Shown: positions 8,238 to 30,903, counted from the stretch's first letter. The stretch is DNA of 64,000 nucleotides from Kiritimatiellia bacterium (GCA_045537795.1 JAZSQE010000053.1:11805-75804), one strand, 5' to 3'. Notes: generated from the sequence alone by a model not told the origin. Made by a program: numbers and translations.

Positions 8238-9680
8238 TTATTTCACTTCGCCGATCTGCATCACCCAGATATCCCAAACGAGACCGCGGTTGGAGCGGAA
8301 GAACACCGTCTTACCATCCGGCGCGAAAACAGGCTTGTCGTCGCAAGAACCGTTGGTGGTGAGCTGCGTAAGGCCGTCGCCGTCAGCGCCCATCACCCAA
8401 ATATCATAATTCTTTTTACCTTTAATCGTGCCGCGATTCGAGGCGAAAACGATCTTCTTGCCGTCGACCGACCAACGCGCATCAATGTCGTTAAATTCCC
8501 CCGCGCCCATCGAAAGCTGGGTCGGATTGCCGCCGTCCGCATCACACACCCATATTTTGGCCTGATTCTTGTCTCGATTTCCCTTGATGAAAAGAAGCTT
8601 CTTTCCGTCAGGGCTCCACTGGGGTGCATACCCTTCGCGCAACTGACTGGGAAGTCCGCGTTCTTTGATGGGAAGCGACCAGAGATATGCCGGATTGGGC
8701 GTTCCCGGAAGCACAGCCGCAAACAGAAGATCGTTTCCGTTCGGATGCAAAGCGGGAGAATAATCTGCGGTGTTCGCCTGATTGACTGTCGCGATGCCGC
8801 TCTTCTTCTCCATGTTCAAACGGCAAACGGAAAGTTTCCCGTTGCGCGTTGTGCCGAAATAAAGCATCTTTCCGTCAAATGCGGCATTCGGTGTGATATC
8901 ATGGAAATTGCCTGTCGTCACCGCCGCTCGCGGCGCGCCCGCGATTGAAGTATTCATCTTCCAGATATTGGATCGATATTCCAGCTTGGCACCATCCATA
9001 TATTCTTCGATAATCGACACAACCATGGTTTTCCCGTCAGGCAACAAGCTGAAATCCTGAATGTATTCAGTCTGCGGCGCAGAGGTAACTCGCTTGACCG
9101 AAGAAACGTTCGGAGAGTTTTCGCCAACTTCCGTATCGGAGAAGATAGGCGTCGTACGGATACTCACGCCGTTCTGTGTCGGCATCAGTTCAAGAAGTCG
9201 GCGTCCGGAACCGTCCTGATCCATAACAAGATTGATATCTGTGGGCGTTTCAGGATTCGGAGTCATCTTTGCTTCGAGCCAACCTTGTTTCTTGACCGAC
9301 ACGACCGAACTGCCGCTGTCATTGACTGCAACGCCTTTGAGCGGCGTCTTGCCTTTTGCTTCACCATCGACATAAACTGTCGCACCCTGTTCGTTGGCCG
9401 TGACATTAAACTTTCTATCAAGATTTACATCAATCGTTGCGGGCGTTGCAAACGAGAGCCTGACAGACTTCTGCGCATAGCCATCCTTTGAAACAGTTAT
9501 GTTTTTACCGTTTGTAAACCACCAGTTCCAAAACCAGGTGTCAACTTGCGCAGGAGCAGAACTTGTTATTTGATCATGTTTAACACTGGCACCAGGGATA
9601 CTGGTTACAGTTGTCGTCTTGCAGCCCGCCACCGCCAATAGCAGAGATGCCGCGCCAATTCCGATTTTCATCGACTTCAT
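8238..9680 (-). CDS. Lipoprotein with an N-terminal PEGA domain and a TolB-like (PD40) beta-propeller
   Basis: Lipobox VAGC. VDVNLDRKFNVTANEQGATVYVDGEAKGKTP is PEGA-like. Repeated SPDGKKLLF / DGKKIVFASNR / FAPDGKTVFFRSNRG...IWVM units are PD40-like. Confidence 0.75.
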   Translation of the reverse strand: MKSMKIGIGAASLLLAVAGCKTTTVTSIPGASVKHDQITSSAPAQVDTWFWNWWFTNGKNITVSKDGYAQKSVRLSFATPATIDVNLDRKFNVTANEQGATVYVDGEAKGKTPLKGVAVNDSGSSVVSVKKQGWLEAKMTPNPETPTDINLVMDQDGSGRRLLELMPTQNGVSIRTTPIFSDTEVGENSPNVSSVKRVTSAPQTEYIQDFSLLPDGKTMVVSIIEEYMDGAKLEYRSNIWKMNTSIAGAPRAAVTTGNFHDITPNAAFDGKMLYFGTTRNGKLSVCRLNMEKKSGIATVNQANTADYSPALHPNGNDLLFAAVLPGTPNPAYLWSLPIKERGLPSQLREGYAPQWSPDGKKLLFIKGNRDKNQAKIWVCDADGGNPTQLSMGAGEFNDIDARWSVDGKKIVFASNRGTIKGKKNYDIWVMGADGDGLTQLTTNGSCDDKPVFAPDGKTVFFRSNRGLVWDIWVMQIGEVK

Positions 9681-9870
9681 CTTTTATCTCCATTTCTTTT
9701 GGAGACAAAAGAGCGGGCGTGCCTCCTTCACCCGTGCTCTCTGATGAGGCCGACCAAAGCCCTTAGGGAAAGCATGAGTGCAAGATGACACGCCCGGCAC
9801 ATGTGTGTGCCATACAGCGCGCCCCTCGCAAGACATGTCGTTCCCTGATAAATTTTGGTCGTTTCATCAG

Positions 9871-10012
9871 AACGAGCAAGTCCGCGTGGTTACGCGATCT
9901 TTATATCTGTCCGCTCAGGGGGTGGCGAGAGCTTCTTTCAAGATCGCCGCAGTCCTTCGCTTGACGTCAAGTATTATAGCAAAATTATATTGTTTTGTGT
10001 CGCCACCTTCTC
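9871..10012 (+). repeat. 142-bp repeat copy A (97% identical to 30553..30694)
   Basis: Direct alignment by eye gives 4 mismatches in 142 bp. Contains a cgcg-tggtta-cgcg hairpin, the inverted 8-mers ggtggcga/tcgccacc, and the 12-bp palindrome cttgacgtcaag. Confidence 0.85.
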
Positions 10013-10182
10013 GGAGCGACTTATAAACCTCTGCGTATTTGAGCCTCTGTGTTAAAAACAAAAATTTGCCAAAAATTATAGAATCGACTTGCAGTAACTT
10101 TCAGAACTTGCGTTTAGTTTTGGACATAACGAAATAAATTTGGAAAGTTCTACAATGTCGTGAGTCAAACCGGAAAGCAAGA

Positions 10183-10838
10183 TTATCGCGGTAGAGAGAG
10201 GGATCGGGCGACATCCGGCACCGCCGCAAGCAGAAGTTTTGTGTATTCGGATTTCGGATTGCCGAACACTTCCGCCGGAACACCGGTTTCCACAAACTCG
10301 CCGCGACGCATTACACATACGTGGTCGCACACATTCTTCACCACCGCCAGATCGTGCGCTATGAGCAGAATAGCAAGACCCAATTCATGGCGCAGATCGC
10401 GAAGCAGGGTGAGAATACGGACCTGCACACTGACATCGAGCACGCTGACCGGTTCGTCCGCTATCAACGCTTCCGGTTCGCAGGCCAAGGCTCTGGCTAT
10501 GCTTACCCGCTGACACTGCCCCCCCCCGACATCTCACGCGGATACTGGTCCAGCACCGATTTGCTCAACCCCACCAGATCCATGAGCTCTTCAAGACTAC
10601 GGCGGCATTCCGCGCCCATTCTCCGCCGGATTGCGCACACCTCATTCACCGCTTGCCTCACGGTCTTGCGGGGATTGAGCGAACCGGCAGCATCCTGAAA
10701 CACCATCTGCACCGACCGCGCTCTCGCGACGGCATGATCATCCACCACCAGCGCCTCAACAACACCTGTTGGCGACCAGCAATACATTTGACGAGTGCGT
10801 TCCATTTTCTTGACTATGAAATTCACCTCGCGAACCAT
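10183..10838 (-). pseudogene. Oligopeptide/dipeptide-type ABC transporter ATP-binding protein (OppF/DppF-like), 5'-truncated and frameshifted
   Basis: Fragments [27 protein letters not shown] and [14 protein letters not shown]...LIAHDLAVV are typical of this family. There is no Walker A. The frame breaks in a C9 run (10519-10527), and the N-terminal end is replaced by AT-rich island sequence. Confidence 0.75.
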
Positions 10839-13132
10839 TTATGCACACGCTTTCCCATCCTATAGCACATCTTCTTCAGCATTACTTTAAAAGCATAAAA
10901 GTAACCATGAGGAGCTAAGACTTTAGATGTCGCAAAAATCAAAACATCATGAACATTAGCGACACCCAAAAACTTAATTCTGTCTTCAAATGTCAGTTGA
11001 TTAAATGTGCAGTCTTTTGCCAACGAGTGTCCTTCCGAGTTCAGACAGTTAAGATCAACCCCACGACCTTCATATCGTTTTTTATCAGCATCATCCAGCA
11101 AAACCCGACCCAATAATTTATGAAAGAAGCACCCATTTTCATCAACAACCCAACCCCTTTTCGAAAAATCAGAAATTATCCCCTCAAAGCTTCTAAGCCA
11201 AGTTACCGAATGTGTCATCACGGGGATAAAATCATTTAACATTGATTCGTCCATTTTCTTTACCGCATGCTTAAAGTCCTCCATAATACCATATTCAATA
11301 TCATAGTCATGTTGCGTCAGATATCGCCGCTTCGGCAAATACGAGCAGAAAACAGCATCACAACTATCAACCACATGATGTGCGACAACAAACATCAAAT
11401 GATTTAAATCAACTTCCTCTATCTTAGTCCGAAGCTCAAAAACTGCAATTTCTGGATCTTGGCTATTAAGCTGTCCCTGCTCTATCAATTCCGCATACCT
11501 ATCTCTACGATTTGCATCATCATTTTCAAAACGCTGTTTCAATGACTCCAACACGAGTCTTCGGGGAGAATCATAGTTCCATGATTCGGTTCCTGTGAGA
11601 TATCGAACTGCAGGTGTGATTGTCACCAAACACTGCCCTTTCCCTCGAACCATAGGATCCCATTCATTAATTTCCAACCCTGTATTCGCTATAAGGTACA
11701 ACGAGTGTAAACAATCACTCTTATATTGTAATTCAAGCACACCATACCATGTTGACGAATCCCCACAGGTTACACGTGTTTGTGTGACACATTTAACATC
11801 ATTTATCTTATAACGAAACTGCTTGCGATCTTCTTTCTCATGATATTCAGACTCAATCAAGAGTCGTGAAATTGGTTGTCGCTGATTCCACTGCAAATAC
11901 TGGCAAACTACCCCAGCTGGATTTTTATAAAACACATCTTGATTCACAATAAACTTCTTTGGATACCCAGATGACAAAACTGATACATGCTCATCAAAGC
12001 CACGAAGTGGTTCATAGGATATCCGTTCTCTAACTCCCATTTTCGACATTGACTCCACCTCTACCGTAATCGTTCTTCTCTGAATAGCCAACCTCGGCTC
12101 ATTATGAACAGGCCGTTCCTGAGATAATAATGTGGCACGAAGTGGCATACACCCTTCGCAAACATATTCATCAATGGAATATGAACGTGAAAGTGCCGAA
12201 AGCCACACAACCATTCCGTCATCAACAACATTTAATGGCATTCGTTTATAATGAGTCAGTTCATGATGTTGATAATAATGAGTCGCAATGGCAACATCAT
12301 ATTTTGGTTGTCTATCCTGTTCTCGTTGTAAAACAATCTTATTAGCATTCCCACTTCGGTCATCTTTTCCATATCGCAACCTTAAATGCAATTCATTTTC
12401 ATCGGAAGTTCCTACTATAAACAATTGAAGTCCTCGACATTCACGAACCTTTCGCATACCATCCAAAATCAATTCGGATAATTTTTGATCATTCGCTCCT
12501 ACAAAAAGGACTGACACCCAATCCCCATTAACACGATGCGTTGAGAACCATCTTGAAAATTTGTCGCTAATTCGTTTGGCGATTTCTTCCTTTATTAATG
12601 AATCAATGTTAGCATCTATACCTCTACCAGGAGTGCATTTCCCCATCCCAGACATCCTCCATCCATGGAGATCACCAAGGAACTCAACCGTATTCCATAA
12701 AATAAATGAATTCCCCAGTGCCTCTTTTAGCCCAATTTCAGCACTATCACTTATTTCCCAGGGCACACGTAAGGACAATGCTGCACACAACTTACTGTTA
12801 AACCACTTGTTCGGCCATCGGCCTAACATATCGGCCAATATGAAACGAAAATCATCTAATTTTCTATCCCACTCATATCCCGATGGATCAAAGGCTTCTG
12901 CCTTTTGTTTAACTTTCTCCACAAGTTTAATAATCGACACAAGCTGTTTACCAAAAATAACGACTCCATGTCGTCGCAAAAGTAGTAGAATAAGGTACAT
13001 TAATCCCAAAGAGCCTATCAATAATACTCCGCACTTCGCGAATAGCGAAGATAGTTGAATAATGGTAAGTGGAGTCTGCAATGCAGATACAACACTGGCC
13101 CAAAATAGAACTGCTTCTTTGTTGATTCTCAT
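10823..13132 (-). CDS. Hypothetical membrane-anchored protein (769 aa; 2 N-terminal TM helices, large soluble domain)
   Basis: Last gene of the island II operon. VSVLFVGANDQKLSELILDGMRKVRECRGLQLFIVGTSDE faintly resembles a GT-B Rossmann half, but this is not established. Confidence 0.5.
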   Translation of the reverse strand: MRINKEAVLFWASVVSALQTPLTIIQLSSLFAKCGVLLIGSLGLMYLILLLLRRHGVVIFGKQLVSIIKLVEKVKQKAEAFDPSGYEWDRKLDDFRFILADMLGRWPNKWFNSKLCAALSLRVPWEISDSAEIGLKEALGNSFILWNTVEFLGDLHGWRMSGMGKCTPGRGIDANIDSLIKEEIAKRISDKFSRWFSTHRVNGDWVSVLFVGANDQKLSELILDGMRKVRECRGLQLFIVGTSDENELHLRLRYGKDDRSGNANKIVLQREQDRQPKYDVAIATHYYQHHELTHYKRMPLNVVDDGMVVWLSALSRSYSIDEYVCEGCMPLRATLLSQERPVHNEPRLAIQRRTITVEVESMSKMGVRERISYEPLRGFDEHVSVLSSGYPKKFIVNQDVFYKNPAGVVCQYLQWNQRQPISRLLIESEYHEKEDRKQFRYKINDVKCVTQTRVTCGDSSTWYGVLELQYKSDCLHSLYLIANTGLEINEWDPMVRGKGQCLVTITPAVRYLTGTESWNYDSPRRLVLESLKQRFENDDANRRDRYAELIEQGQLNSQDPEIAVFELRTKIEEVDLNHLMFVVAHHVVDSCDAVFCSYLPKRRYLTQHDYDIEYGIMEDFKHAVKKMDESMLNDFIPVMTHSVTWLRSFEGIISDFSKRGWVVDENGCFFHKLLGRVLLDDADKKRYEGRGVDLNCLNSEGHSLAKDCTFNQLTFEDRIKFLGVANVHDVLIFATSKVLAPHGYFYAFKVMLKKMCYRMGKRVHKWFAR

Positions 13133-14347
13133 TTACTCTCCCATCAAGAACGTCAACACATGCTCCACTTCATGATACGCGCTTTTCCAACAGTTGGCTT
13201 TACATGCGATGTTGTCATCATTCGACAATACATATCCATCCGGCGAAAGCCCCTCGCGGATTCCGTGGCAAGCACGGGTACGATCTATATAATCGCAAGA
13301 GAACCACGCCGCAACGCCCTGTTTCAGCAATGGAATCAGCTCTGGATAATCATGCGCATAAAGATATATGGTTTGATCAATCAAGACATGCCGCCACCAC
13401 TGAAGATTCTGTTTCTGGAAAGTCGTGGGAGAATGGTCAAAATCAGTAAGCCAACCGATTCCGGGACGTGCAGCGGCTTTTACTATTTCCGGATAACCAG
13501 CTGTTACGGTCTCATACATCGTCGGCATTCCCCATGAGCAAAACAAGTCATTTGCCTTGTAGAGGATACCGTATGCCTTGGATGTATGACCTAAATCCGT
13601 ATGCTTCGCCTGCCAATCCGAACGATTTCCTTTCTCGTTCCAGAATATTCCATTTCCATAAAACTCATCGACCAAGAGTTTTACCCACTTCACAAGGAGA
13701 TTTTTCCGTTCAATCGTCAGTTCGTCAGACGGCGTCACGCGCAACGCAGGGATTAGAATGGCATTGAGAAAATCCAATACGGACACGATGTTCATTGTCT
13801 TGGTTTCAAAGCAAACCTCATTCTTCAAATCTGATGCAAGCGAATCCGTGTAAACATTCTCTCCTTTCAAATACGGACCAGCGTCAATAAAAGAAATGAA
13901 CGACCATATCTTATTGAAATATTCCCTATTGCCAGTCACCCGATACGCCATGACATACGGGAAAGCCGAATAGCATTGATCCTGTATTGAGATTGGCGTA
14001 TCTCTTGGCTTGCCGTCAAAGGAGAACGTTGAGAAATATCCCCCCAAAGGGTTCTCGTAGGCCTCTAACCTTTTCAGTCCAGACAAACCATACGACAACA
14101 GATCTTCTCTTCGAAGCATCAAATATGCAGCGAGATAACCATAAGTCTGCCGCCCATGCATACGGACATAAATTGGCTCGGAATAATCGGGCACTCCCGA
14201 TTGCGAAGCATACGTCGGGAACAATCCAATTGGATTCCCCAACATAGATGGCTGCATCCAGAACAGCAGAATATCGTTGGTGAGATGTTCTCTCATCAAC
14301 GGTTCTATCCATGCCTTAAATTCGTTCATCGGTGAATTGTTTTTCAT
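13133..14347 (-). CDS. AGE (N-acylglucosamine 2-epimerase)-like (alpha/alpha)6-barrel protein, cytoplasmic (404 aa)
   Basis: HTDLGHTSKAYGIL resembles the AGE HxEPGHxxE motif; YRVTGNREYFNKI resembles the LYxxTGDxxYL motif. No signal peptide. Assignment is tentative. Confidence 0.4.
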   Translation of the reverse strand: MKNNSPMNEFKAWIEPLMREHLTNDILLFWMQPSMLGNPIGLFPTYASQSGVPDYSEPIYVRMHGRQTYGYLAAYLMLRREDLLSYGLSGLKRLEAYENPLGGYFSTFSFDGKPRDTPISIQDQCYSAFPYVMAYRVTGNREYFNKIWSFISFIDAGPYLKGENVYTDSLASDLKNEVCFETKTMNIVSVLDFLNAILIPALRVTPSDELTIERKNLLVKWVKLLVDEFYGNGIFWNEKGNRSDWQAKHTDLGHTSKAYGILYKANDLFCSWGMPTMYETVTAGYPEIVKAAARPGIGWLTDFDHSPTTFQKQNLQWWRHVLIDQTIYLYAHDYPELIPLLKQGVAAWFSCDYIDRTRACHGIREGLSPDGYVLSNDDNIACKANCWKSAYHEVEHVLTFLMGE

Positions 14348-14400
14348 CTATTTCCTTTGCATGAATGTCATGAAGCTCTCGCCAAAGCATAGAGGAACCA

Positions 14401-15525
14401 CTATGAGTTCTTTCGACCTTCACATTCAACAAGTTTCTCCTCTACGCCCTTAAACCTCGCGGTAGATAAATCAAAAGAAAAAGTGACGAGTGGTTTCCCA
14501 TTCTCAAGACGGACAAATTTTCGCTTGCCCTTCTTTACTAGTTGTTTAAGCATCTCATCATTATACGTCTGTTTTGTTATGGCCTTATAGAGGTTCTTAA
14601 ACGTAGTAACATGCAAAATTTCATCATGGTCTTTTGCAAACATCTTGCCATCGCCAACAGAGAAGACTCGTTCCAATACTGCACGATCCATCTTTCCATC
14701 CTTGGCGAAATGAAGATCATTATACCGCGCAAAGAATATGTAAAAGAGATAATAACAAGAACCTTGTTTAGACAGTGCCGTCCCATATTCATCAATCGAT
14801 GTCGGAGCAAGGGGGACTTCTCGTTGATAGCAATCAAGTTTATCAAACTTGGCTTCATAGTGGCGTGGCACAGGGCTAAAAGAAACAAATGTGAATCTTG
14901 GTTCATCCTTGCCAGCCGACGAATGTTGGTCAGGCATTCTCAAAATAACCGGGACGTTCCCATCTGCATCAATCGGAACATAAAGAACTTGTAATATACA
15001 CTTGTCCTTTTTATTCTCATTTTTGAGTGGGACACACTCGAAACTAGACATGATACTTGCGTCAGCGAAAAACTGCTCAGCAGATAAATAGTTCCCATCC
15101 TGGGCTGCATGAATAACAACAGGATCCGATGAACTCAAGTTCTTGATGTCTATGTTATAACGACTACACAATAAGTTTTGAATACCTGGAGCAGCAATAT
15201 CTGAGCAATACTTGTAATCCACCTGGGTGGCCCTTTTTGCCGCGCTGTCTAACACATCTTTCTGTTTCCGTGCCATATAACGAGATATCGCATAAATAAC
15301 TAATGTTGACAGACCAACAATCCCCCCAACATATAGAATCAGCAACGAGAGCGAAATATGTCCTTGCCAATATGACTTTATTAATCTACAAGCCTCAAAC
15401 AAGAGGGCGAATATAGACACTAGATTTGCAAATCGAGAAAGCGATATGTCAAATTGCTTAACAGTCATAAGACTCTCCTTATTTTCTGTGCATGAAGTCG
15501 TAGAACAACGCGGCAAGGAAACCAA
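14401..15525 (-). CDS. Hypothetical protein with 2 N-terminal TM helices (about 355-374 aa; the start is probably the internal Met of MTVKQFD at 15468)
   Basis: ORF in the island II operon; the soluble C-terminal domain has no recognised motifs. Confidence 0.45.
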   Translation of the reverse strand: MVSLPRCSTTSCTENKESLMTVKQFDISLSRFANLVSIFALLFEACRLIKSYWQGHISLSLLILYVGGIVGLSTLVIYAISRYMARKQKDVLDSAAKRATQVDYKYCSDIAAPGIQNLLCSRYNIDIKNLSSSDPVVIHAAQDGNYLSAEQFFADASIMSSFECVPLKNENKKDKCILQVLYVPIDADGNVPVILRMPDQHSSAGKDEPRFTFVSFSPVPRHYEAKFDKLDCYQREVPLAPTSIDEYGTALSKQGSCYYLFYIFFARYNDLHFAKDGKMDRAVLERVFSVGDGKMFAKDHDEILHVTTFKNLYKAITKQTYNDEMLKQLVKKGKRKFVRLENGKPLVTFSFDLSTARFKGVEEKLVECEGRKNS

Positions 15526-17782
15526 TATGGATCAATGCCAATTGGCGCATCGCTTGAACCACAGTGGTTACTAACTGCACTGCCTCTTTAGGATCAAAGC
15601 CTTGCCCCCAAATCTTCGGCACCGTACCATTCCATGTACGCGATAGAAGTTTCTCAATGCCCATATCTGGCTGCGTAGAAAACAGTAATTCATACATCTT
15701 AGACAAAACAAAACTATATTCGGCCTTGGGATCAATTATGGCGTGATAATACCAAACAAAAACCCCAACAAACAAAGCAAAACTAAGACAGAAGTTAAGT
15801 TTGCCGCGTACAGCCCACTCGGGGAAAGCCAACAAATTACGCGGAACTGGGGACAACAATAATCGATGCATATACCTTGACTGGCGCGATAAAAAAGCAG
15901 CCTCTTCATTTCGACCGCGCGACCTCAAAAGTTCAGAAAGGGTACCACATATAGCCGACATTCCACTCTCAAACATCTCTTCTCTTACTGCGCCATTCGA
16001 CGACCGGCAAATCTGCCACAAGGAATTATGGAGATCCACCCACCGATCTTCCATGTCCAATCGCGCTCGGACGCCCGGAAACTCACATTCTGCCAACACT
16101 TCGCAATAATGGCGCAACCCCAACGCTTCAATGGACAATGCAGGCGTTTTGTGCCCAAGCAACTCGTAAGCACATGTGGACAACACCGCTGCACGAATGG
16201 CATCTTCTATACTTTTACCTCTATCCTTAATCGTACGAGCACGGTCAATCAAATCTGTCGCTACATCCAACGTCATACCATATGCAGAATGATTCGAATC
16301 AGGAACTTCTGTTCCTGTTATGGTCGGCATCATTCCTTTTAGCGCATTATGAAAGATATGCGAAATCATTTGAGCATTTAATTGCCCGTCGAAATGGCAA
16401 CCATTAGGTAATCCACATTGGTTTCGCAATCCAAATATTCCTCCGAGCGGCTTGCCAACAAGACACCAGTAACGTGTTTTGCTTGATTGAATCTGATGTT
16501 GCGGAAAGTGATTTGTGTACAGTTTTGGACAAAATCGCCACTGAGAACGAATTTTAAAAAATGTCTGAACACGAGAATGATGACCAAACAAAAACAACAT
16601 TCCCTTTACAATTATGTTACGACACAATCCAAATGCGCCAAAAATTAGGAACAACGATGGTATAAACATTATTGGCATGTAAATCAGAAGCCACACCAAA
16701 GCCCACACAATAAATGCGCATTTAACTATATTCCAGACCCAAACATCAGCTAATCCACCAGCGAAAAGGTTAAAAGCCTGCCGACGTGCCTTTTCAACCG
16801 CACTTTGGATAGGCTTCATCTTTGTTTGCCTAAGGTCTTTAACATCTGCTCCACGAAACCACGAATCCGCAGTAATGGATATTTGCGCTTTGCGACTTGA
16901 ATCAGGTGCGCCTTTATCATGTTTCCGAGCAATCTTCTCTTCTGAACCTGCCGCTGTCGCCAATACGCGCAAATTGGCACTCTTCAGTAAAGGCCAGACA
17001 TTATCACGCCCATCACCCAAGAGATGCGCCTTGTTCTGCCTTTGAGTCAAATCAGGAAATTCAATATATCCATCCTCAAAAACAATCAACGATGAATCGG
17101 AAGACACTGTTGCTCTCGCAAACGATGGCAACTTCGTCTTATCACTGACAGATAACACTTGTTCCGCCAATCGTGCCGTAGAAACGGGATACACTCGATA
17201 GCCAAAGCGAAACGCCGTATAGGCAGCTAACTCTGCGAAGTGCTTTTCCTCATCAATCGATACCGCAACATCATCTCGATTATAAGGGTAAGCGCTATTT
17301 GTTTTGTGGGTTCTAATTAATTTACTACGAACACCCATCCCATCAAATATTGGATTAAAACCACCTAATGCCAATTCCACTGCGAGTTTTACATGTTCCC
17401 TAGAAATCTGATCTTCTCCCTTAAACACTGGTACCCAAAGGACATCGGGGAATGCCAAAATCAAAAGTCCCTGCACAGATTGCAAAGATGGCATTTCACT
17501 AAGATCATTCCAAAGCCGTGCATCTAGAATCGCAACAAATCGATCAGAAGGATTGACATCCCCTATTGCCGCACCTAAAATCTCAGCAATTTCATGAAAC
17601 GATTCCCGAACATCCCCCATAAACCTTGTAGGTGTCAACGACAGCTGGGGAATGATTCTCTGTTCAATTGACACAGAAGGGATGCTCTCCTTCAAACAAT
17701 TATATTGAGCATCAATCCATTGCCGACACAGTTCATTAGTGCCGCATGATTCCCTATCTGCTATCACCCAGCAATGCACCAT
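15479..17782 (-). CDS. Hypothetical large membrane protein (767 aa; about 340-aa N-terminal soluble domain, central TM bundle, alpha-rich C-terminal domain)
   Basis: Long ORF in the island II operon. Hydrophobic segment VWVWNIVKCAFIVWALVWLLIYMPIMFIPSLFLIFGAFGL. Confidence 0.5.
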   Translation of the reverse strand: MVHCWVIADRESCGTNELCRQWIDAQYNCLKESIPSVSIEQRIIPQLSLTPTRFMGDVRESFHEIAEILGAAIGDVNPSDRFVAILDARLWNDLSEMPSLQSVQGLLILAFPDVLWVPVFKGEDQISREHVKLAVELALGGFNPIFDGMGVRSKLIRTHKTNSAYPYNRDDVAVSIDEEKHFAELAAYTAFRFGYRVYPVSTARLAEQVLSVSDKTKLPSFARATVSSDSSLIVFEDGYIEFPDLTQRQNKAHLLGDGRDNVWPLLKSANLRVLATAAGSEEKIARKHDKGAPDSSRKAQISITADSWFRGADVKDLRQTKMKPIQSAVEKARRQAFNLFAGGLADVWVWNIVKCAFIVWALVWLLIYMPIMFIPSLFLIFGAFGLCRNIIVKGMLFLFGHHSRVQTFFKIRSQWRFCPKLYTNHFPQHQIQSSKTRYWCLVGKPLGGIFGLRNQCGLPNGCHFDGQLNAQMISHIFHNALKGMMPTITGTEVPDSNHSAYGMTLDVATDLIDRARTIKDRGKSIEDAIRAAVLSTCAYELLGHKTPALSIEALGLRHYCEVLAECEFPGVRARLDMEDRWVDLHNSLWQICRSSNGAVREEMFESGMSAICGTLSELLRSRGRNEEAAFLSRQSRYMHRLLLSPVPRNLLAFPEWAVRGKLNFCLSFALFVGVFVWYYHAIIDPKAEYSFVLSKMYELLFSTQPDMGIEKLLSRTWNGTVPKIWGQGFDPKEAVQLVTTVVQAMRQLALIHIGFLAALFYDFMHRK

Positions 17783-17803
17783 TGCCTCACCTCAACTTTC
17801 TAC

Positions 17804-18799
17804 TCAATCCGTATCAGAATCACTCGCCCTAGAATGATTCATCGTGTGATCCCCACTTCCCGTTCCTTCTTCATGGAATGAGAATAAGATACCAAATTGA
17901 ATCACAACAAACACAAGCCCCAGAACTCCAAAACCTAATTCTGTCGCAAAAGAACGACCCTGAAAGCTCTTCATCCAAGCTAATACAAAACCACATACCA
18001 ATTCCAATAATACGATTAACTCAAGGACATGCTTAATCCTTAATGGCAATGTGGCAAACTTACTTCCATTCGATGCGGATTGCGTAGCTGTGTCGGCAGA
18101 AGAGATGGTATTACCAGTGGTAGATTCGACAAGATGAACAACATTACCTACGGAACTCCTATTTGTGCCAAACGTAGATGTTGCAAGTTTAGCTGTCTTG
18201 AAAGATTCGGGAACTTCAACACACCAACCCTTACACCCCTCTTCCAAGACGTCAAGAACCTCTTGCAGGCTACTTGGCAACAACAGGATATTACCACCAA
18301 CATTCTTCCTTGCCAGTAGCCATGACTGATTAATACTAGTACCATTGCGGGAAATGGCCATGCATAAGAAATTTTGTTTAGCTCTGTTGTCAAGAGCTTT
18401 CCATGCCAGCCCCAATCGTTCGTTCGCCTGTTTATAACTATTATCACCAAAATGGATAAAAACACAAATTGGCGCATCCTTGAATTGTGCTAACTCGTCA
18501 CAAATTTCGATTTTACGTCGCAATGCAAGGTTAAAAGCATGCATCTTAGAGACACGAGATTCAAAATCCTCGTTACCGCAAGTGATGGAATCGATGAATG
18601 GAGAGACATCAACATCATCTGGCGACAAAACAATTGAGGGAATAGGAGACTTACGCACATAGGCAATGAACTTGGGATCTGAGTTCAGCAGATATTTTTT
18701 CGGCTCAGAGCCAAAATCGCTCTCATCATCCGAATTTACTTTCCAGCGCCAATTCTGGATGTCGCCAGGATCAGCAGAATGAACAAATACACTAATCAT
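17804..18799 (-). CDS. Hypothetical protein (331 aa): about 220-aa soluble domain, S/T-rich linker, C-terminal 2-TM anchor
   Basis: 8-bp overlap with the upstream 1613-aa gene; no recognised motifs. Confidence 0.5.
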   Translation of the reverse strand: MISVFVHSADPGDIQNWRWKVNSDDESDFGSEPKKYLLNSDPKFIAYVRKSPIPSIVLSPDDVDVSPFIDSITCGNEDFESRVSKMHAFNLALRRKIEICDELAQFKDAPICVFIHFGDNSYKQANERLGLAWKALDNRAKQNFLCMAISRNGTSINQSWLLARKNVGGNILLLPSSLQEVLDVLEEGCKGWCVEVPESFKTAKLATSTFGTNRSSVGNVVHLVESTTGNTISSADTATQSASNGSKFATLPLRIKHVLELIVLLELVCGFVLAWMKSFQGRSFATELGFGVLGLVFVVIQFGILFSFHEEGTGSGDHTMNHSRASDSDTD

Positions 18800-21700
18800 T
18801 GCTATTATTCCTTTCCGGTGATCCCGGCAGAATGCTCATAAGGGAATTCACCAAGTTCAGTTTTTCTGGATATCGTTTAAAGAGGAATGCCTCTATAGAG
18901 GAAAATGCCAACACCTTCTCGTTGTCCGGAATATTATCAGGACGACCACGACCTGTGGTCACTACGACAAAGCGACCATACCCGTGCCCGTCAGAATGTC
19001 GCAAATGATCAAGGATAACCTTGACATTCTTCTTGCTATGTCCTTTCCACCACTTGTCGATGATGCCCTGATGAATGACCACAAGATCAAAATCGAAATC
19101 TGTTTCATTAGAATGTTCAGATTTGAACAACGTACCATCCACATATTTCAGGCTCTTGAAGTCAAGGGAATCTGCCACGACTTTCGGCTTTTCCTGTGTA
19201 TCAACGACCGCAATGCGCATTGATGCATATGTCTTTTGTATCTCTTCGCCGTGATCGGCAACAAAAGCACGAACACGTTCATCAATAATTACGATTCGCA
19301 GCAAGCCATTTTCAGCCAGTCTCATCGCCCATTGCACGTCCTGACGCGATAAGTTCGCAAGTGCATTCAAATAAGTCTGAGAACCGCTAAGTGGTTCGCT
19401 GTACAGCATGGCACCATCCGTAGCGTGGCGATTATATGAAATAACAGCATCTTTACCATTTCCCCCATAGAAGATTTCCAGACCTAGATTACCAGTAAAG
19501 TCAAGTTTACCGCTCACATCAGATCCTACACCCTTATATTGTCGTGGCAAAGTTACTATACGCTCCTCATACTTTCTTAAGAATACATCACCTGTTGTAC
19601 GAGCGACATCTAAGGCTTCTGCCGCCCGTTTGATAATCAAAGACTCTACGGGTGTAGTGGCCATCGTATCCAATTCCTGCAATAACATAGAGTCCCTACC
19701 GCCTCTATCAATGGAAGATAGTTCATCAAGAAGCGACTTGGCAATAACTGGCGGATATTTCATGGTCTCTGTCGCCCGTTCAAGCCCTGCTTGATATGCA
19801 CAAACAAGCCGTTTCCACTTATCACATTCTTTTTCTTCGTGCACACATGGCAATGACGTCCAAAATAGACTAACTTTTTCGGCAATTCTCCCAAGGATAC
19901 TCTCTATCTTCAGTCGATGATTACCTGTGAACTTTTCTTGCACGGATTCAAACAATTTATCATTTTCATCCAAAGGATAAAGCGACAGAAGGAGGAGTGC
20001 CTTGCGCTGCGTCGGCGTCATTTTCAGACAGTCATCAACTATTGGCTCCAAGACAGAATGCAAACACTCACGAAAGAGCACCTTATAAATATCCCTATCA
20101 CTGACGAGACCTTTTTCGCATCCTTGGGTGTCATAGATATTCAATTTAATCGTCAATTCGCTATCTTCTACCCCTCGGCGACGTTTAAGATATTCCAGCC
20201 ATGCTCTATATACAACTGACACCAACTCATTGTGGTCAATATTTTTCAGCGATGCCCCTGAGATGTAAGGCGCAACCTTGTTTCCTTCACCTGTATAATC
20301 AACAAACAACGTACGGAACGGCAACTTCAACGCCTCGTCTGAAATCATCTTTTTGTCATGGTCAATGACAATAAACTCATAGTCGGACATCAAGCCAACG
20401 TCACCCTTTTTGTCATGAGTCCCGAAGATACGCGCATACGATTCCACTCCAAAACCATTTGTTTCTTTGAACAAATTCCATTTCGAGATGTCATCCGCTA
20501 CAATTAAAATACTTCTAGGGAGTTTAATCCAAAATCGGTATGCTAAACGTAATTCCTTATAATCCAGTTTGCCATTTTGCTCATTTCGTGGAATCCCAAC
20601 AGGGACAATAAGCGGATGTTTGCCCACTTCATCCGCAATTCCTCCTATCACGGATATCTCCGCCCGTCGAAGATATCCAGCAGAAATCTTCATCTCTGAC
20701 AAGCCCCAAGAGGCCTGCCGCAATCGTTTTGTTTCTGAATCAATAAACGGCTTCGCTAATTCAATTTCCTGACGATGATGCAAAGGAAGAGGAAGCCTAT
20801 GACCCAATGGGGCGTCATCACTTGCAACAGACACATCGCCACTCAACAAAGAACGGAAGGTCCCATCTCCTCTCAACGACTCCCAGTTCGCGCTAACATA
20901 ATCATAAAGAACCCTGTAGAACCACGGTAATGAATTTCGCTCGCCTTTTCCTCTTAAGAACTGTTCTATGGCGTATCGCCTGGAAATCTCCGTGCCGGAA
21001 GATTCCTTTGAAGTCTTTGGCAAAACCAATTCCCCATCCAAAGGTGAAGCAAATACAGAAACCAAATCTTCATACTTGTGGTCTTCGGGTAACTTGGCAT
21101 TCGCAAAGAACATTGGCCAGAAGGTTCCTGCAAACAACCTAGACATGTTATCCCCTATCGCAAAACAGACCATCCCTTCTTCCTGGCGTGTATCGAAATC
21201 AACATATATCTCTAAATTGCCCGCTGCTTCCCGTTCACCAGCGCTCTTCCCTGCCCATGAATGCTTCGCTGCATTACGCAAAATATTCTCAATGACATTG
21301 TAAAATGCTTGCTGCCCCAAAATTCCACCGGGGATGGACATGACCTCATCATTCTTCCAAATCACAGACTGCTCTGGGGCATGGAAAAATTCATATGCAT
21401 CAACGCAACGCTTGTTCGGAAGATTCTTTCGCGACCATCCCTCTGGCGGCACGTCGGGAACCTTCTCTCCATCTTTGTACCGCCTAATTCGCCGAACGAC
21501 AATCTTCACACAATTCTCCTGCAAATCACCAGACACCGTTCCTTTCCCTTGGTACTGGTAAGCATGCAACCCATCACTCTCCGCAATATGGTCCAGTAGA
21601 TGCCTCTGAGAATAGAAAGTCTTCATCACACTTCCAACAAAAGGAGTCGGAACAGACCAGTCTGGAGCTCCCATTGTTGCAGAAGCGATGTAGTCCATTC

Positions 21701-23633
21701 GATGCTGGATGTATTGATACAAAATCCGATCGTCAGGCATCGTTCCAACATTGTGCGATAATGCCGACAGTACATGACTACCAATATTGTGGGAACCATT
21801 GCGAGACATAATGGCGCCGATTGCAGACTTACTATTGGCAATTCTTAACGCCTCGCTCTTTCGCCCGTTAAAATATATTGATAGCAATTGCCTTGTCGCA
21901 GTAGAAAGTACCTGTATGATTGGAGAGGAAAGCCGCCTCCCCACAACTACCACCAACATGCCTGTATCATCATCCGCCACATAAGGCACACAATATATGT
22001 AATTATGCTTCTTCGCCACGGCAGCAATGAACGCGGTTCTTAGCCCCTCAAAGTCTTTTTGTCTCCAATCAATGCGAGAAAAGCGATTTTGAAAAATAAC
22101 TTCCCTCGTTTCAGTCACAGAAACCCCAATCGGTGTACATGAGTCCGAGACAAGCCATTCCGGAACTGTTACATGACGATTACGACAATCCAACCACAAC
22201 CTTTTAACCGTATTGTCAGGAAAATCTTCTGACGAAAGATTGATTTGCAATGCTGCGTTTGAGTGCCCGAAGCCTTTTACGAATGACTCCATAAAATCCA
22301 ACAAGCAATTATTTAAATAATTTGCATCATCATTATCATTTTCATCGATTCTATTCAACTTTTTTATAGCGCCATTTTCAAAAGAACAGAACACTGCCGC
22401 AACACTATCTTCCCCCGAATCAGGGCTTACCAACTTTCCGACATGAGAACTCGCATTGTGAAACGTATTTGCAACGTCACTCAGACCATCATCATCATCC
22501 AACTCTTTCACAAAATCAGCTGAAATGCAATTTATATCATGTAGAAACCTTGCAATCTCAGTTAATCCAACGGATTGAGATGTCACGTCAACGATATTTT
22601 GAATCCACTTATCTGCTTTAGAATCATAAGACATTTTCCAAAGAGATAGTGGCATGGCCATGTTCCCACTATCAGCAATATTCAACACTCCAAATGGAGA
22701 TACATAGGTTCTTACCAAATGCCAGTCGAGTTTATTTGCCTTAATGAGATATCCCAAATATCCAAAGATAGTCTTTATAAGATTACGGTAAAATAATGCG
22801 ACATCGGACAATCCTATTCCTGTATAAAATATTGCCTTATCTCTAAACGGGAACTCCTTCAAGCCTTTTAGATGAGGCACCAAGCCTTCAATCCCTTCCC
22901 CAATTGACAACGCTACATTCGTAAATACATACCCATTATAATTATGTTTAGCAAGAAACTCAATAAGAGACTTATGTCCGTGATCCGCATATCCAGAAAT
23001 GAATATGGCGTCTGTATGGAGCAATTGCGCCATATCTTCATCAGTAAGTTTGCCATTAAATTCCCATTTTTTGAACAGAGCAACCTTGTAAAGACCATAT
23101 TGCCTGCAAAGCAGACTCTCAAATATATTGCAATGCTCCAATGGAGCCTTTGCATCTAGCGCCGCCAACCCAACCGTTGGGACATCACCTTTATTGGCAA
23201 TCGTAATTCTCTTTTTAAACAACCAGTTAAACAATATAAACGTCTCATACTCTTGTGTAAACCAGAACTTTAAATGCTTATTTTTTTCACCACGATCAAC
23301 ATCAATACCTGTTATAACGGTGGCTGTGCCGACAATTTCATTTGCTGGAGGGATCTTGAATGCATCAAAAAGTTTAACAGAGGCATCATCTCCAAAAACC
23401 AAAACAAACTTCGCCCCACCACAAACCAACTCATTATATGCAGATAAAACATTATCGTTAGTTATATCTTTAGGAGTTTTCCATTTGTCTGCCTCTTTTG
23501 AAAAAATGGGGACGAGACCACCACCACTCACCTCATTTGCTAAATCATTGATGAAATCAGCAACATTCCCGTTGGCGATTATGATTTCCCTCATATAAGA
23601 TGGCAACAAGAATCCTATCTGCGTTTCTGTCAT
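18792..23633 (-). CDS. Giant (1613 aa) cytoplasmic multidomain protein: LivK-like type I binding fold, HisKA-like H-box, GHKL (histidine-kinase-type) ATPase, receiver-like segments
   Basis: No TM helix. aa 60-240 resemble the LivK fold (SAYNELVCGGAKFVLVFGDDASV...; HTDAIFISGYADHGHKSLIEFLAKHNYNG). aa ~610-625 SHNIGSHVLSAL resembles a HisKA H-box (SHELRTPLTAI). aa ~775-792 FYNVIENILRNAAKHS is a GHKL N-box. aa ~824-834 FAIGDNMSRLF is a G1 box. aa ~1040-1095 SILIVADD...YEFIVIDHD and aa ~1446-1525 RIVIIDE...DLVVIHQGI are receiver-like. Confidence 0.6.
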   Translation of the reverse strand: MTETQIGFLLPSYMREIIIANGNVADFINDLANEVSGGGLVPIFSKEADKWKTPKDITNDNVLSAYNELVCGGAKFVLVFGDDASVKLFDAFKIPPANEIVGTATVITGIDVDRGEKNKHLKFWFTQEYETFILFNWLFKKRITIANKGDVPTVGLAALDAKAPLEHCNIFESLLCRQYGLYKVALFKKWEFNGKLTDEDMAQLLHTDAIFISGYADHGHKSLIEFLAKHNYNGYVFTNVALSIGEGIEGLVPHLKGLKEFPFRDKAIFYTGIGLSDVALFYRNLIKTIFGYLGYLIKANKLDWHLVRTYVSPFGVLNIADSGNMAMPLSLWKMSYDSKADKWIQNIVDVTSQSVGLTEIARFLHDINCISADFVKELDDDDGLSDVANTFHNASSHVGKLVSPDSGEDSVAAVFCSFENGAIKKLNRIDENDNDDANYLNNCLLDFMESFVKGFGHSNAALQINLSSEDFPDNTVKRLWLDCRNRHVTVPEWLVSDSCTPIGVSVTETREVIFQNRFSRIDWRQKDFEGLRTAFIAAVAKKHNYIYCVPYVADDDTGMLVVVVGRRLSSPIIQVLSTATRQLLSIYFNGRKSEALRIANSKSAIGAIMSRNGSHNIGSHVLSALSHNVGTMPDDRILYQYIQHRMDYIASATMGAPDWSVPTPFVGSVMKTFYSQRHLLDHIAESDGLHAYQYQGKGTVSGDLQENCVKIVVRRIRRYKDGEKVPDVPPEGWSRKNLPNKRCVDAYEFFHAPEQSVIWKNDEVMSIPGGILGQQAFYNVIENILRNAAKHSWAGKSAGEREAAGNLEIYVDFDTRQEEGMVCFAIGDNMSRLFAGTFWPMFFANAKLPEDHKYEDLVSVFASPLDGELVLPKTSKESSGTEISRRYAIEQFLRGKGERNSLPWFYRVLYDYVSANWESLRGDGTFRSLLSGDVSVASDDAPLGHRLPLPLHHRQEIELAKPFIDSETKRLRQASWGLSEMKISAGYLRRAEISVIGGIADEVGKHPLIVPVGIPRNEQNGKLDYKELRLAYRFWIKLPRSILIVADDISKWNLFKETNGFGVESYARIFGTHDKKGDVGLMSDYEFIVIDHDKKMISDEALKLPFRTLFVDYTGEGNKVAPYISGASLKNIDHNELVSVVYRAWLEYLKRRRGVEDSELTIKLNIYDTQGCEKGLVSDRDIYKVLFRECLHSVLEPIVDDCLKMTPTQRKALLLLSLYPLDENDKLFESVQEKFTGNHRLKIESILGRIAEKVSLFWTSLPCVHEEKECDKWKRLVCAYQAGLERATETMKYPPVIAKSLLDELSSIDRGGRDSMLLQELDTMATTPVESLIIKRAAEALDVARTTGDVFLRKYEERIVTLPRQYKGVGSDVSGKLDFTGNLGLEIFYGGNGKDAVISYNRHATDGAMLYSEPLSGSQTYLNALANLSRQDVQWAMRLAENGLLRIVIIDERVRAFVADHGEEIQKTYASMRIAVVDTQEKPKVVADSLDFKSLKYVDGTLFKSEHSNETDFDFDLVVIHQGIIDKWWKGHSKKNVKVILDHLRHSDGHGYGRFVVVTTGRGRPDNIPDNEKVLAFSSIEAFLFKRYPEKLNLVNSLMSILPGSPERNNSND

Positions 23634-24815: not shown

Positions 24816-24866
24816 TTCTTTATTCCTTTCTTATTCTAAATTACTTCAATCGCCTTTGCCCACTAC

Positions 24867-25588: not shown

Positions 25589-25598
25589 ATTGGTAATT

Positions 25599-28780: not shown

Positions 28781-29630
28781 CTGCCAATCCTTTGGGTTTC
28801 ATGTACACAAGAACGATCAGCAACACGCCGTAGATTATCTCGCGCAGATTCGCCGCGACCGCATCCGGAAGGCCGACAAACCTCAAAAGTTCAGGAAGAA
28901 CAATCATGAACACAACGCCGGACATAGGGCCTGCGATATTGCCCGATCCGCCGACAAGCAGAATGCAGGCTATGAAAATCGACTCTGAAAGCGTGAAACT
29001 TGTCGGATCGATGTAGGTAATGTAACTTGCGAAACATACGCCCGGCACCGCGGCGACCGCAGACGAAAAAACCATGGCCTTGATATACTGCCCCTTGGGA
29101 CAGATGCCCAAGGTCTGCGCCGCGGCCTCGTCGTCGCGCAGGGCTTTGAGCGAAAGCGCGAACGGACTTTGGACGACAAGATGCATAAAAGCGAGAACGA
29201 GGGCAAAGAGAACGAGAGTGAACACGAAATATGCAGGCACGGATTCTATACCCATACCGAAGAATTCAGGACGCGGGATCCCCGAGATTCCATACGGTCC
29301 GCGCGTCAGATCGGTCCAGTTGTAAAGAACGACATAGACGATCATCTGAAATCCTATCGTCGCCAGAACGAATGCTTCATTGCGGAATCTGAGCGCGGCA
29401 TGTCCGAACAGCCAGCCGACGAGCGCGCAAAGCGCGACAGCAGCGGGAAGCGTCACATAGAACGGAAGCCCCAATTTAAGCGACAAAAGCGCGTATGCGT
29501 AAGCACCAAGTCCGTAAAAGACGGCCTGCGCCATCGTAAGAAGCCCGCCGAACCCGATCAGCAGATTGGTCGAAAGAGCCAACATCCCGTAGATGCCCAG
29601 CATCACGCCGATATGAAGAAGATAATTCAT
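28761..29630 (-). CDS. livM: Branched-chain amino acid ABC transporter permease LivM
   Basis: Multi-TM permease; the start was reset to MNYLLHIG (an ATGA overlap with the livH stop); the upstream ORF extension is spurious. Confidence 0.75.
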   Translation of the reverse strand: MNYLLHIGVMLGIYGMLALSTNLLIGFGGLLTMAQAVFYGLGAYAYALLSLKLGLPFYVTLPAAVALCALVGWLFGHAALRFRNEAFVLATIGFQMIVYVVLYNWTDLTRGPYGISGIPRPEFFGMGIESVPAYFVFTLVLFALVLAFMHLVVQSPFALSLKALRDDEAAAQTLGICPKGQYIKAMVFSSAVAAVPGVCFASYITYIDPTSFTLSESIFIACILLVGGSGNIAGPMSGVVFMIVLPELLRFVGLPDAVAANLREIIYGVLLIVLVYMKPKGLAGAYAVK

Positions 29631-30519
29631 TTGGACTCCTCCAGTCGTTTGCTCACGCCGAAAAGCCCCTGCGGACGGAACATCAGAACGAAAATCAAGA
29701 CGCCGAACGTCACAAGATCGGTCCACCGTGCCGAAAGCTGCCAAACGGCAAGGCTTTGCAACGCAGAGAGGAGCAACGCACCCGCGCCCCAGGCCCAATA
29801 TCTGTCGGCACCCCCGAAAAACACCGCTACCGAACCGAGCAGAAGATAGTGCATACCGACATGCGGATCCATTCCGATATCCCATGAAATCAACATCGCC
29901 GGAATCGCCACCAGCACACCGCCAAGCATCATAACACCAAGACGCAACCGACGCACAGGCAGCCCAAGGACGGCCAAGAGTTCAGGCTGGTCGCCCATTG
30001 CCCACAACGCCTTGAACCATTTGCCGTAGCGCACCGCCATACCGACGGAGGCGAACACACCGAACCCGACAAGGAACTGAAGAACCTGAATGCGGGTAAA
30101 GCGGAGTCCTGCAAACACGACGGACGGCTCCAATTGATTTGAAATCGTTTTCACCTCATTCCCGTAAATGAGCGCGATGACATTTTCAACAACAATCATG
30201 ATACCGAGCGAAGCGATCATCATCACGCCGGACGAGCAGCGCTTCCGGGCAAACGGATGATAGACGGCACATTCGATCAGCACGGCGAAAACAGCCGACA
30301 GCGCCAGCACCGCCGGCACCGAAACCGTCAGCGGAAGTTTACACACCGCTGCGCACGTGTAGAACGCATAGCACGAAAACACAAACTGCGCTCCCATCGC
30401 TATGTGAAACACGCGAAATGACCTGTAGACAATGCCAAAACCGGCCGCGTACAGCATCGCGACCGCACCTTGCACAAGGCCGTTACCGAGAAGCTGAGCA
30501 AATAGCGAACTTACAAACA
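29627..30519 (-). CDS. livH: Branched-chain amino acid ABC transporter permease LivH
   Basis: Multi-TM permease. The likely start is the ATG at 30517-30519 (MFVSSLF); the ORF-track start is a TTG further upstream. Confidence 0.75.
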
Positions 30520-30552
30520 TTTTACATTTCAAATCATTTGGTCGGTTCAACC

Positions 30553-30694
30553 GAACGAGCAAGTCCGCGTGGTTACGCGATCTTTATATCTGTCCGCTTA
30601 GGGGGTGGCGAGAGCTCCTTTCAAGATCGCCGCATTCCTTCGCTTGACGCCAAGTATTATAGCAAAATTATATTGTTTTGTGTCGCCACCTTCT
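30553..30694 (+). repeat. 142-bp repeat copy B
   Basis: Aligns to 9871..10012 with 4 mismatches; lies 33 bp upstream of the livH ATG and abuts the hcp fragment. Confidence 0.85.
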
Positions 30695-30903
30695 CTTTTG
30701 CGCTGAAACTGAAGGAAGCTTTGGGGCTTGCCGACATCAATGAGCTGCCCGTTTCCTACAACATCGCCTGGTACGAACCAAAAGCGATCATCGTGCTCTT
30801 AGCGCTGCTGCATCTCGGCGTCAAGAACATCCGCTTAGGTCCAACACTACCCGCGTTCCTTTCGCCAAACGTCACGCCGACCGTAAAACATCGATGCCAT
30901 TAA
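30695..30903 (+). pseudogene. hcp: 3'-terminal fragment (about 69 codons) of a hybrid-cluster protein / hydroxylamine reductase gene
   Basis: [55 protein letters not shown] matches the Hcp C-terminus. Upstream of 30695 it is replaced by repeat copy B. Confidence 0.6.

Follow-up and report, generated by a model that had tools for sequence, protein, structure and literature searches.

The stretch of DNA considered here, 64,000 nucleotides (nt) from a Kiritimatiellia bacterium (GCA_045537795.1, JAZSQE010000053.1:11805-75804), carries the same short sequence at two places, each time 5' of minus-strand genes. We refer to this whole 64-kb stretch as the window, and count positions from its first letter. 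One copy (A) lies ahead of a PEGA/PD40 lipoprotein gene and the other (B) ahead of livH. A preliminary description of the window had reported the pair as a structured direct repeat and had leaned towards a dispersed promoter/leader (cis-regulatory RNA) module prone to recombination, an idea that essentially matches the comparative data presented here. The sense strand of the repeat is the minus strand, and because the homology with related loci (designated by L numbers) runs on to the start codon of the downstream gene, copy A is the 5' half of a module of about 335 nt. The gene and the parts of the module, all on the minus strand, are the following (SD, Shine-Dalgarno sequence; MFE, minimum free energy).

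9681..10012: complete promoter and leader module, about 335 nt, ending at the ATG of the PEGA/PD40 gene; homology block common to L001-L006, L009, L010, L012, L014-L018 and L034
9854..10012: repeat copy A, from the promoter (about -45) to about +113 of the leader
9996..10001: putative -35-like hexamer GACACA, 17 nt upstream of the -10 element, a weak match to TTGACA
9973..9981: extended -10 element TGCTATAAT, with TATAAT at 9978-9973; the copy B equivalent is at 30656-30664
9964..9968: predicted transcription start, about 7 nt past the -10 element, placed by promoter geometry only
9922..9950: 5' hairpin P0 (GCGGCGA...UCGCCAC), RNAalifold helices 1-2, with compensatory changes at 3 pairs
9878..9901: invariant hairpin AAGAU-CGCG-UAACCA-CGCG-GACUU, followed by UGCUCGUUC; the same in 19 of 19 copies bar one U/A position
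9736..9877: rod-like domain of 142 nt, RNAalifold helices 4-9; copy B keeps the 5' strand only (9854-9877)
9867..9869: 5' side (UGA) of a 3-bp hypervariable box, with its partner UCA at 9742-9744
9714..9734: hairpin P4 with loop AAGGAGGCA, the loop being a perfect SD mimic (9720-9728)
9681..9713: terminal hairpin of 13 bp, CUCUUUUGUCUCC paired with GGAGAUAAAAG, which in MFE folds buries the SD (GGAG, 9688-9691) as far as the base preceding the ATG
8238..9680: PEGA/PD40 (TolB-like) lipoprotein gene served by copy A, with Pfam domains PD40 and PEGA

A repeat search and a pairwise alignment with 100-nt flanks define a gap-free direct repeat of 159 nt (copy A, 9854-10012; copy B, 30537-30695), and not of 142 nt as first reported. 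The copies differ at 7 positions (9862, 9867, 9869, 9916, 9934, 9952 and 9967), corresponding to 96% identity, and the last four of these fall within the 142 nt. Just beyond the edges the flanks are unrelated, with 23/30 and 22/30 mismatches, and chance cannot account for a match of 159 nt at 96% within 64 kb. Copy B had been placed one base off (the true offset is 20683, and an offset of 20682 gives 105 mismatches), and the livH ATG at 30520 lies 16 nt from it rather than 33 nt. An nhmmer profile search of the 64 kb revealed no third copy in the window. The mismatches between A and B have no adenine bias, and the pair was rejected as the template and variable repeats of a diversity-generating retroelement.

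Transcription would start near 9966, and near 30649 for copy B, as judged from promoter geometry. Of the 19 aligned copies, 18 retain the pattern TGnTA(T/A)AAT amid diverged surroundings, and the nineteenth (L002) is cut by a contig end. A minus-strand TATAAT had indeed been noticed previously; its position is 9978-9973, not 9974-9979, and a TG at 9981-9980 precedes it. At -32 to -30 the alignments show the trimer ACA recurring in most copies (TGCACA, TTACACA, CGACACA). Among the other motifs that had been pointed out, the cgcg-tggtta-cgcg hairpin is present at 9883-9896 and is invariant across copies. The 12-bp palindrome CTTGACGTCAAG at 9960-9971 (CTTGACGCCAAG in B) and the inverted 8-mers ggtggcga/tcgccacc at 9921-9928 and 10000-10007 are also present, but they occur in one subfamily only and are not conserved. 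As an FNR/CRP/HcpR operator CTTGACGTCAAG was rejected, being restricted to that subfamily, mutated in B and wrongly spaced for TTGAT-N4-ATCAA.

We found 16 full-length copies of the module in metagenome-assembled genomes (MAGs) of ruminant-gut Kiritimatiellia and in metagenome contigs. An exact 20-mer from the invariant hairpin picked out 11 loci in species-representative genomes, 9 of them in ruminant-gut Kiritimatiellia MAGs and 2 by chance, and a second pattern, from the segment between copy A and the gene, added 6 more real loci in metagenomes. Five candidates (L008, L011, L013, L019 and L020) share a 20-29 nt match only and were discarded as chance matches occurring at the expected rate. 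Alignment (blastn) of the window with its relatives delimits a shared block from about 10012 to 9676, that is, from about 45 nt upstream of TATAAT to the start codon. L001, L002, L003, L006, L009 and L010 have no other match to the window, and the protein encoded after the block is not the PEGA protein. The apparent 190-bp gap between copy A and its gene is filled by the other half of the module, namely the second strand of the rod, the SD-mimic hairpin and the SD-masking hairpin.

In the alignment of fifteen full copies, column identity averages 75% and the core hardly varies; L034 was added later as the sixteenth. At least 10 unrelated operons have the module ahead of them, 83-92% identical and in every case in their own orientation, and the homology ends at the start codon. 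Genes begin 10-80 nt past the conserved core (about 230-385 nt in L015), and encode the following.

Window, L004, L005 and L034: PEGA/PD40 lipoprotein
L002 and L006: giant S8 subtilase
L017: extracytoplasmic function (ECF)-like sigma factor and zf-HC2 protein; L010 is similar in N-terminal sequence, without a Pfam match
L014: PP2C and Ser/Thr kinase
L001: radical-SAM/SPASM protein and ATP-binding cassette (ABC) exporters
L015: TIR, metallophosphoesterase and RyR-domain proteins
L003/L016, L009 and L018: secreted or membrane proteins of unknown kind

The operons behind full copies have a G+C content of 34-50%, compared with 56-61% for the backbone. Counts of the invariant 20-mer are 1-2 per species-representative MAG (MAGs may under-count repeats), and MAG JAFXEA holds two copies in different contexts. 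Together with the strict co-orientation of full copies with the next gene, this differs from the dozens of randomly oriented copies by which the preliminary description would have recognised a generic repeat. Six of the 15 aligned full copies (L002, L003, L009, L010, L012 and L018) are cut by a contig end or lie within about 150 nt of one, as expected for a repeat. No target-site duplication was found, the 5' flanks of 13 copies sharing nothing and the 3' edge always being the start codon, and no shared motif lies upstream of the modules except unrelated terminator-like palindromes. These palindromes were seen in L003 (1-130), L009 (1-45), L017 (about 1790-1885, some 140-235 nt 5' of the module) and L005 (about 4940-4965, directly 5'); those of L003 and L009 share a 16-nt stretch, and contigs tend to end thereabouts. 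Neither two scans of viral contigs by exact pattern nor a blastn comparison of the module with plasmid and phage collections gave a match.

The leader, about 287 nt from the predicted start to the ATG, has a markedly stable fold. Its sense strand folds at -128.5 kcal/mol (MFE), compared with -95.2 +/- 5.6 for shuffles (z -5.96), and its antisense strand at -111.6 kcal/mol (z -3.62). Many invariant G.U pairs in the helices would be C.A mismatches on the opposite strand, and the 17 kcal/mol strand asymmetry agrees with these invariant pairs, which work only on the minus-strand RNA. This significant structure belongs to the full leader (9660-9968) and lies mostly inside the supposed 190-bp gap. 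The repeat was thus only partly well described as structured, as its 159 nt alone fold no better than shuffles (z -0.71 sense, -1.73 antisense).

An RNAalifold consensus of the 15 full copies comprises 77 pairs, 10 of which have double changes. Cells are paired in 98.4% of cases, compared with no more than 51% in controls with partners slid 1-3 columns, and double changes occupy 38 cells, compared with 8.9 +/- 2.6 in shuffles (0 of 500 as high) and at most 5 in the slid controls. Several pair types each are found at the rod pairs 184-186/312-314 and 208-209/290-291 (alignment columns). The hypervariable box occurs in six variants (UGA, GGU, GAG, UAC, ACC and CUG), each perfectly complementary to its partner, with double changes in 7, 4 and 8 sequences at its three pairs. 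The invariant hairpin is uninformative for covariation because helix 3 never varies. P4 is likewise invariant in 15 of 15 copies, save for a G/A at one loop position, and reading the sequence shows its loop to be complementary to the downstream GUCUCC. A conserved mRNA-strand structure with covariation, as in riboswitch-like leaders, is therefore present, and so, in predicted MFE folds of 9 of 14 copies, is an expression platform that occludes the SD, which is fully paired in these copies ahead of 4 different genes.

The structure had no counterpart in Rfam. Two of the analyses that the preliminary description had called for, an Rfam/cmscan search and folding with covariation across copies, were carried out, the second finding covariation in the full leader and the first no match. 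Specifically, cmscan of the whole window against Rfam 15 at the gathering threshold returned a tRNA only; at E<=10 the segments 9640-10040 and 9700-10200 gave chance-level matches of at most 16 bits, with thresholds at 34-90; and L034, L036, L038 and L041 at the gathering threshold gave one tRNA only. In the collection of papers searched, none tied Kiritimatiellia to a riboswitch. Copy A has the CUGAUGA...GAAAC look of a hammerhead ribozyme, which we rejected since CUGAUGA falls in the hypervariable box and other copies read CGGUUGA or CACCUGA. An ATG-started frame of 49 codons through the copy A rod was rejected as coding, given the 1- and 2-nt indels among copies and the compensatory helix substitutions.

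Copy B and its surroundings, with the corresponding loci of relatives, are as follows.

30537..30695, minus strand: repeat copy B, a short form joined 16 nt upstream of the livH ATG (30520) and covering nhmmer profile positions 2-130 only
29627..30520, minus strand: livH, first gene of the liv operon, which encodes an amino-acid transporter (Pfam BPD_transp_2)
30697..30885, plus strand: internal fragment of hcp (hybrid-cluster protein gene), about 60 residues, adjoining the promoter edge of copy B (Pfam Prismane 433-494 of 513, E 6e-21)
L007 and L021: same junction as the window; LivH 99% identical in L021, and 100% over the first 61 residues in L007
L022-L025: junction a few nt earlier, then a real SD; LivH 89%
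L026-L032: no module upstream of livH; LivH 83-87%
L033: only a TTTTTGGTAAAAT promoter and a 35-nt leader sharing GATTTGAAAGGATAAATG, and no module; LivH 78%

The two copies had been treated as equivalents. They are not: the A context is the complete module and B a shortened form, which retains the promoter, P0, the invariant CGCG hairpin and only the 5' strand of the rod, and reads ...CGACCAAA|UGAUUUGAAAUGUAAAAUG into livH. The stability of its leader is unremarkable (z -0.15). Because the same junction recurs in relatives, the short form is, on the sequence comparison, a conserved liv promoter and leader in one subclade and not fresh debris. What lies upstream of it differs between close relatives: the window has the hcp fragment, L021 a gene for an rve transposase, and L022 one for a rhamnosidase. 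The hcp fragment, which has neither its 5' nor its 3' remainder, is a rearrangement scar. In L021 the gene for the rve-domain (integrase/transposase core) protein, at 247-1635 on the minus strand, sits directly upstream of the short form, where the window has the hcp fragment.

According to Pfam, the liv operon (23706-30520) consists of livH, livM, livG, an AlbA_2/Schlafen gene, livF, a DUF1016 fragment and livK. The AlbA_2/Schlafen gene, which also has a HATPase_c_4 domain, occupies 26481-27968 (minus strand) between livG and livF, and the truncated DUF1016 gene 25100-25588 (minus strand) between livF and livK. The AlbA_2 insertion is also found in L022 (LivH 89%) and is absent in L026 and L027, and so marks the same subclade as the short-form module. 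A 21-nt tandem repeat of 4.8 copies (TTTCTGGGCAACTTCCGCGCC) at 26694-26793 lies in phase, as a 7-residue repeat, in the 3' part of the AlbA_2 gene. In L007 (5912-6303), a relative with 95% DNA identity, codon 61 of livH is joined to codon 212 of livF, and the liv operon behind the short form is deleted.

The copies are mosaics. The copy B promoter segment of the window matches copy A of the window and not its own orthologues; that of L007 is most like L034, then the L015/L022 type, and that of L021 is of the L004 type. Conversely, the variable boxes of copy A in the window match L006, L017 and L018, not the orthologues L004 and L005. These sequence patterns suggest that the copies are homogenised by gene conversion, which accounts both for A and B being 96% identical and for the sharp 5' edge that they share. 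The module is carried by PEGA/PD40 orthologues at 89-99% identity (L004, L005 and L034), and since more distant ones (67-69%) carry another leader, the family is young and confined to a narrow clade. The leader of these distant orthologues (L036, 2140-2500; L038, 2080-2500), about 320 nt, rod-like, homologous between the two and with its own TGnTATAAT promoter, has no similarity to the module above shuffled controls and no Rfam match at the gathering threshold, and may be a second uncatalogued leader RNA.

What we describe is a dispersed, co-oriented cassette of promoter, leader and ribosome-binding site (RBS), with an RNA structure supported by covariation and with long and short forms. The most likely account of it is a portable promoter with a cis-acting translational leader, and the module looks like a structured leader family that has not been catalogued and that spreads, unusually, as a cassette. 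We consider it probable that the repeats are the promoter-proximal part of a clade-specific portable promoter and structured 5'-leader module of ruminant-gut Kiritimatiellia, that this module is homogenised by gene conversion, and that its long-form leader gates translation in cis.

Several observations weigh against this interpretation. Masking of the SD is absent or unclear in L001, L014, L017 and L018 and partial in L010 (4-5 of 14 copies), and 49 of the 77 pairs never vary. Much of the invariance could reflect recent spread and gene conversion instead of constraint, the copies being 83-96% identical within one narrow clade. In principle, compensatory changes in a long quasi-palindrome might also arise by template-switch correction at the DNA level; the conserved G.U pairs argue against such an origin. 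It is unusual for a ligand-sensing riboswitch that the genes behind the module have no function in common. The TGnTATAAT promoter was not called by a consensus promoter scan, because its -35 is weak, and the promoter is a prediction, as are the start site and any switching.

With this in mind, one may propose how the long-form leader would act in cis on the downstream gene, mainly at translation initiation. The terminal hairpin would lock the SD by pairing the anti-SD strand GUCUCC with the GGAG of the gene. The same GUCUCC could pair instead with the P4 loop (GGAGGC or GGAGAC), and its 5' neighbour CUCUU could pair with the GAGAG that otherwise closes the rod as the 3' strand of the closing helix. 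Rod closure, P4 extension and SD masking would then form a chain of mutually exclusive helices, in which the folding state of the rod, set by a ligand, a protein or temperature, decides whether the SD is exposed. We offer this specific translational switch, drawn from the modelled helices, tentatively, as a proposal that may well prove wrong. The short form would have lost the switch, serving the liv operon as a plain promoter and stabilising 5' hairpin leader. The 3-bp hypervariable paired box could define sub-types. A broader and rather doubtful speculation is that the module represents an undescribed class of regulatory leader RNA of about 290 nt, which would serve a clade of gut Kiritimatiellia as a plug-in cassette for expressing newly acquired operons of low G+C. 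According to this speculation the unit that moves consists of promoter, sensor rod, SD-mimic loop and RBS, stays uniform through gene conversion, and brings accessory genes that are otherwise unrelated under a common signal or protects them from Rho or silencing.

An unlikely alternative is that the leader serves processive antitermination or resists Rho, the promoter-proximal hairpin and UGCUCGUUC loading a Nus-type complex or a NusG paralogue on RNA polymerase so that long, low-GC acquired operons are read to the end. In rrn leaders a boxB hairpin is followed by boxA, and by analogy the order of hairpin and motif in the module resembles this arrangement. Of the leader, both forms retain only the invariant hairpin and the UUGCUCGUUC next to it, and the operons behind full copies are low in G+C relative to the backbone, several of them being long. 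Control of non-rRNA genes by boxA-type elements is documented (PMC5725501). Against these points, GCTCGTTCnnn agrees with the boxA consensus GYTCTTTAANA at only about 6 of 10 specified positions, one mismatch being at T5 in the conserved core, in a comparison with a gamma-proteobacterial consensus that may not be that of the host (PMC5725501). Moreover, antitermination leaves the rod, the SD-mimic loop and the SD-masking hairpin unexplained.

It is quite improbable that the module is a selfish or neutral dispersed repeat, akin to MITEs (miniature inverted-repeat transposable elements) or to Correia or ERIC repeats, with an outward promoter and a hairpin that is at most a determinant of RNase III cleavage or stability. 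Such an origin would fit the multiple copies per genome (two in the window and two in JAFXEA), the 6 of 15 aligned full copies at or near contig ends, the quasi-palindromic rod, the narrow and young distribution and the rearranged upstream flanks; Correia elements also provide promoters and RNase III sites (PMC2649163). It is opposed by the ends of the module, GAGAAGGTG... and ...GGAGATAAAAG, which are not complementary, so that there are no terminal inverted repeats (as the preliminary description had correctly stated), and by the lack of target-site duplications; the inverted 8-mers are internal. Each copy is co-oriented with the next gene, homology extends to the exact start codon with the RBS included, and the apparent copy number is low, with the 20-mer 1-2 times per MAG. 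Compensatory changes and strand-specific G.U pairs indicate selection on RNA, and the plasmid, phage and viral collections gave no matches.

Very improbable, and contradicted by the data, is a family of independent small RNA genes, acting in trans or sequestering a protein like 6S or CsrB RNA and merely located upstream of genes. The module does have its own promoter, a rod-like fold reminiscent of 6S and GGA-containing loops. A scan of the minus strand of 9500-10600, however, found no intrinsic terminator on the sense strand: the UUUU after P4 is 3 nt off the stem and is paired as part of the SD-masking stem. Homology runs through the RBS to the ATG in about 10-11 distinct contexts, all co-oriented, and there was no match to the 6S or Csr families of Rfam. 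Finally, that the copies are attL/attR-like direct repeats bounding a mobile island of 20.7 kb (10013-30536) has next to no chance of being right, for while two direct repeats do enclose low-GC genes that lack Pfam domains, the sequence is also found ahead of unrelated operons elsewhere and singly in other genomes, the copy B/livH junction recurs in several relatives, the enclosed DNA holds the liv operon (23706-30520), whose part at 26-30 kb has a near-backbone 53-56% G+C, none of 20 main open reading frames (ORFs) scanned (6.7-36.4 kb) encodes an integrase and no tRNA lies there, and the low-GC block runs past copy A to about 2 kb. The preliminary description was right to set aside an att site and a tRNA-like fold, and its suggestion that the copies bracket a mobile unit of 20.7 kb found no support; on our preferred interpretation, they are the promoters of two consecutive co-directional transcription units.

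Turning to the rest of the window, its G+C content is 39-45% between about 2 and 26 kb, and between 34 and 64 kb it is 56-61%. Within the low-GC block (about 2000-26000), ORFs at 10823-23633 on the minus strand include six large co-directional ones (769, 404, 374, 767, 331 and 1613 amino acids) without a Pfam domain. An exact look-up did not find the PEGA protein of the window on record. A perfect 30-bp palindrome (TACCTTCACATTTTT/AAAAATGTGAAGGTA) lies at 31002-31031, just 3' of a gene at 31044-32075. The sole Rfam match in the window is the tRNA gene at 53603-53674 on the plus strand.

If the leader is functional, it would constitute a new structured RNA family with unusually clear covariation, from an uncultured and poorly studied phylum. 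A cassette of this kind would also be a rare documented case of a promoter, a regulatory leader and an RBS spreading jointly before unrelated, probably horizontally acquired operons, and would show how new genes get wired into host regulation. Which parts are needed is put to a natural experiment by the occurrence of a long and a short form and by the mosaicism of the promoter segments; for this gut clade, the module is of practical use as a marker and is a candidate expression part. The repeat from which the analysis set out is, then, the visible tip of a larger conserved element and not the boundary of an island.

Among known systems, the attC sites of integrons and the Vibrio cholerae repeats are also highly similar imperfect palindromes, of about 130 nt, beside accessory genes. 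Unlike them, the module forms no arrays: there is one per locus of 3-11 kb, placed 5' of a multi-gene operon with its promoter and RBS, and no integrase is nearby. Its G.U pairs argue for folding at the level of RNA and not of single-stranded DNA. Leaders with boxB and boxA of the rrn and lambda nut type (PMC5725501, PMC7819879, PMC12691694) share with the module a promoter-proximal hairpin, invariant here, followed by a U/C-rich, conserved single-stranded segment (UGCUCGUUC), with long low-GC operons behind. In the module, however, the match to boxA is poor, and its rod, P4 and SD hairpin have no counterpart in those leaders.

Correia elements of Neisseria and the ERIC/IRU repeats (PMC2649163, PMC2229807, PMC10969869) resemble the module as short, dispersed intergenic sequences that bring a promoter and a long RNA hairpin 5' of unrelated genes, exist in multiple copies and cause assembly breaks. 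The module differs from them by its lack of terminal inverted repeats and target-site duplication, its strict orientation and start-codon end, its low copy number and its helices, which evolve by compensation with strand-specific G.U pairs. SD-sequestering leaders, such as translational riboswitches and RNA thermometers, are comparable in being cis-encoded structured 5' untranslated regions with covarying helices, an SD-masking terminal hairpin and upstream competitors for the anti-SD. Compared with these, the module has no Rfam match, its sensor part is a long rod and not a multi-helix junction, and the genes downstream have no common function. It also travels with its own promoter and RBS, as a cassette that is homogenised between loci.

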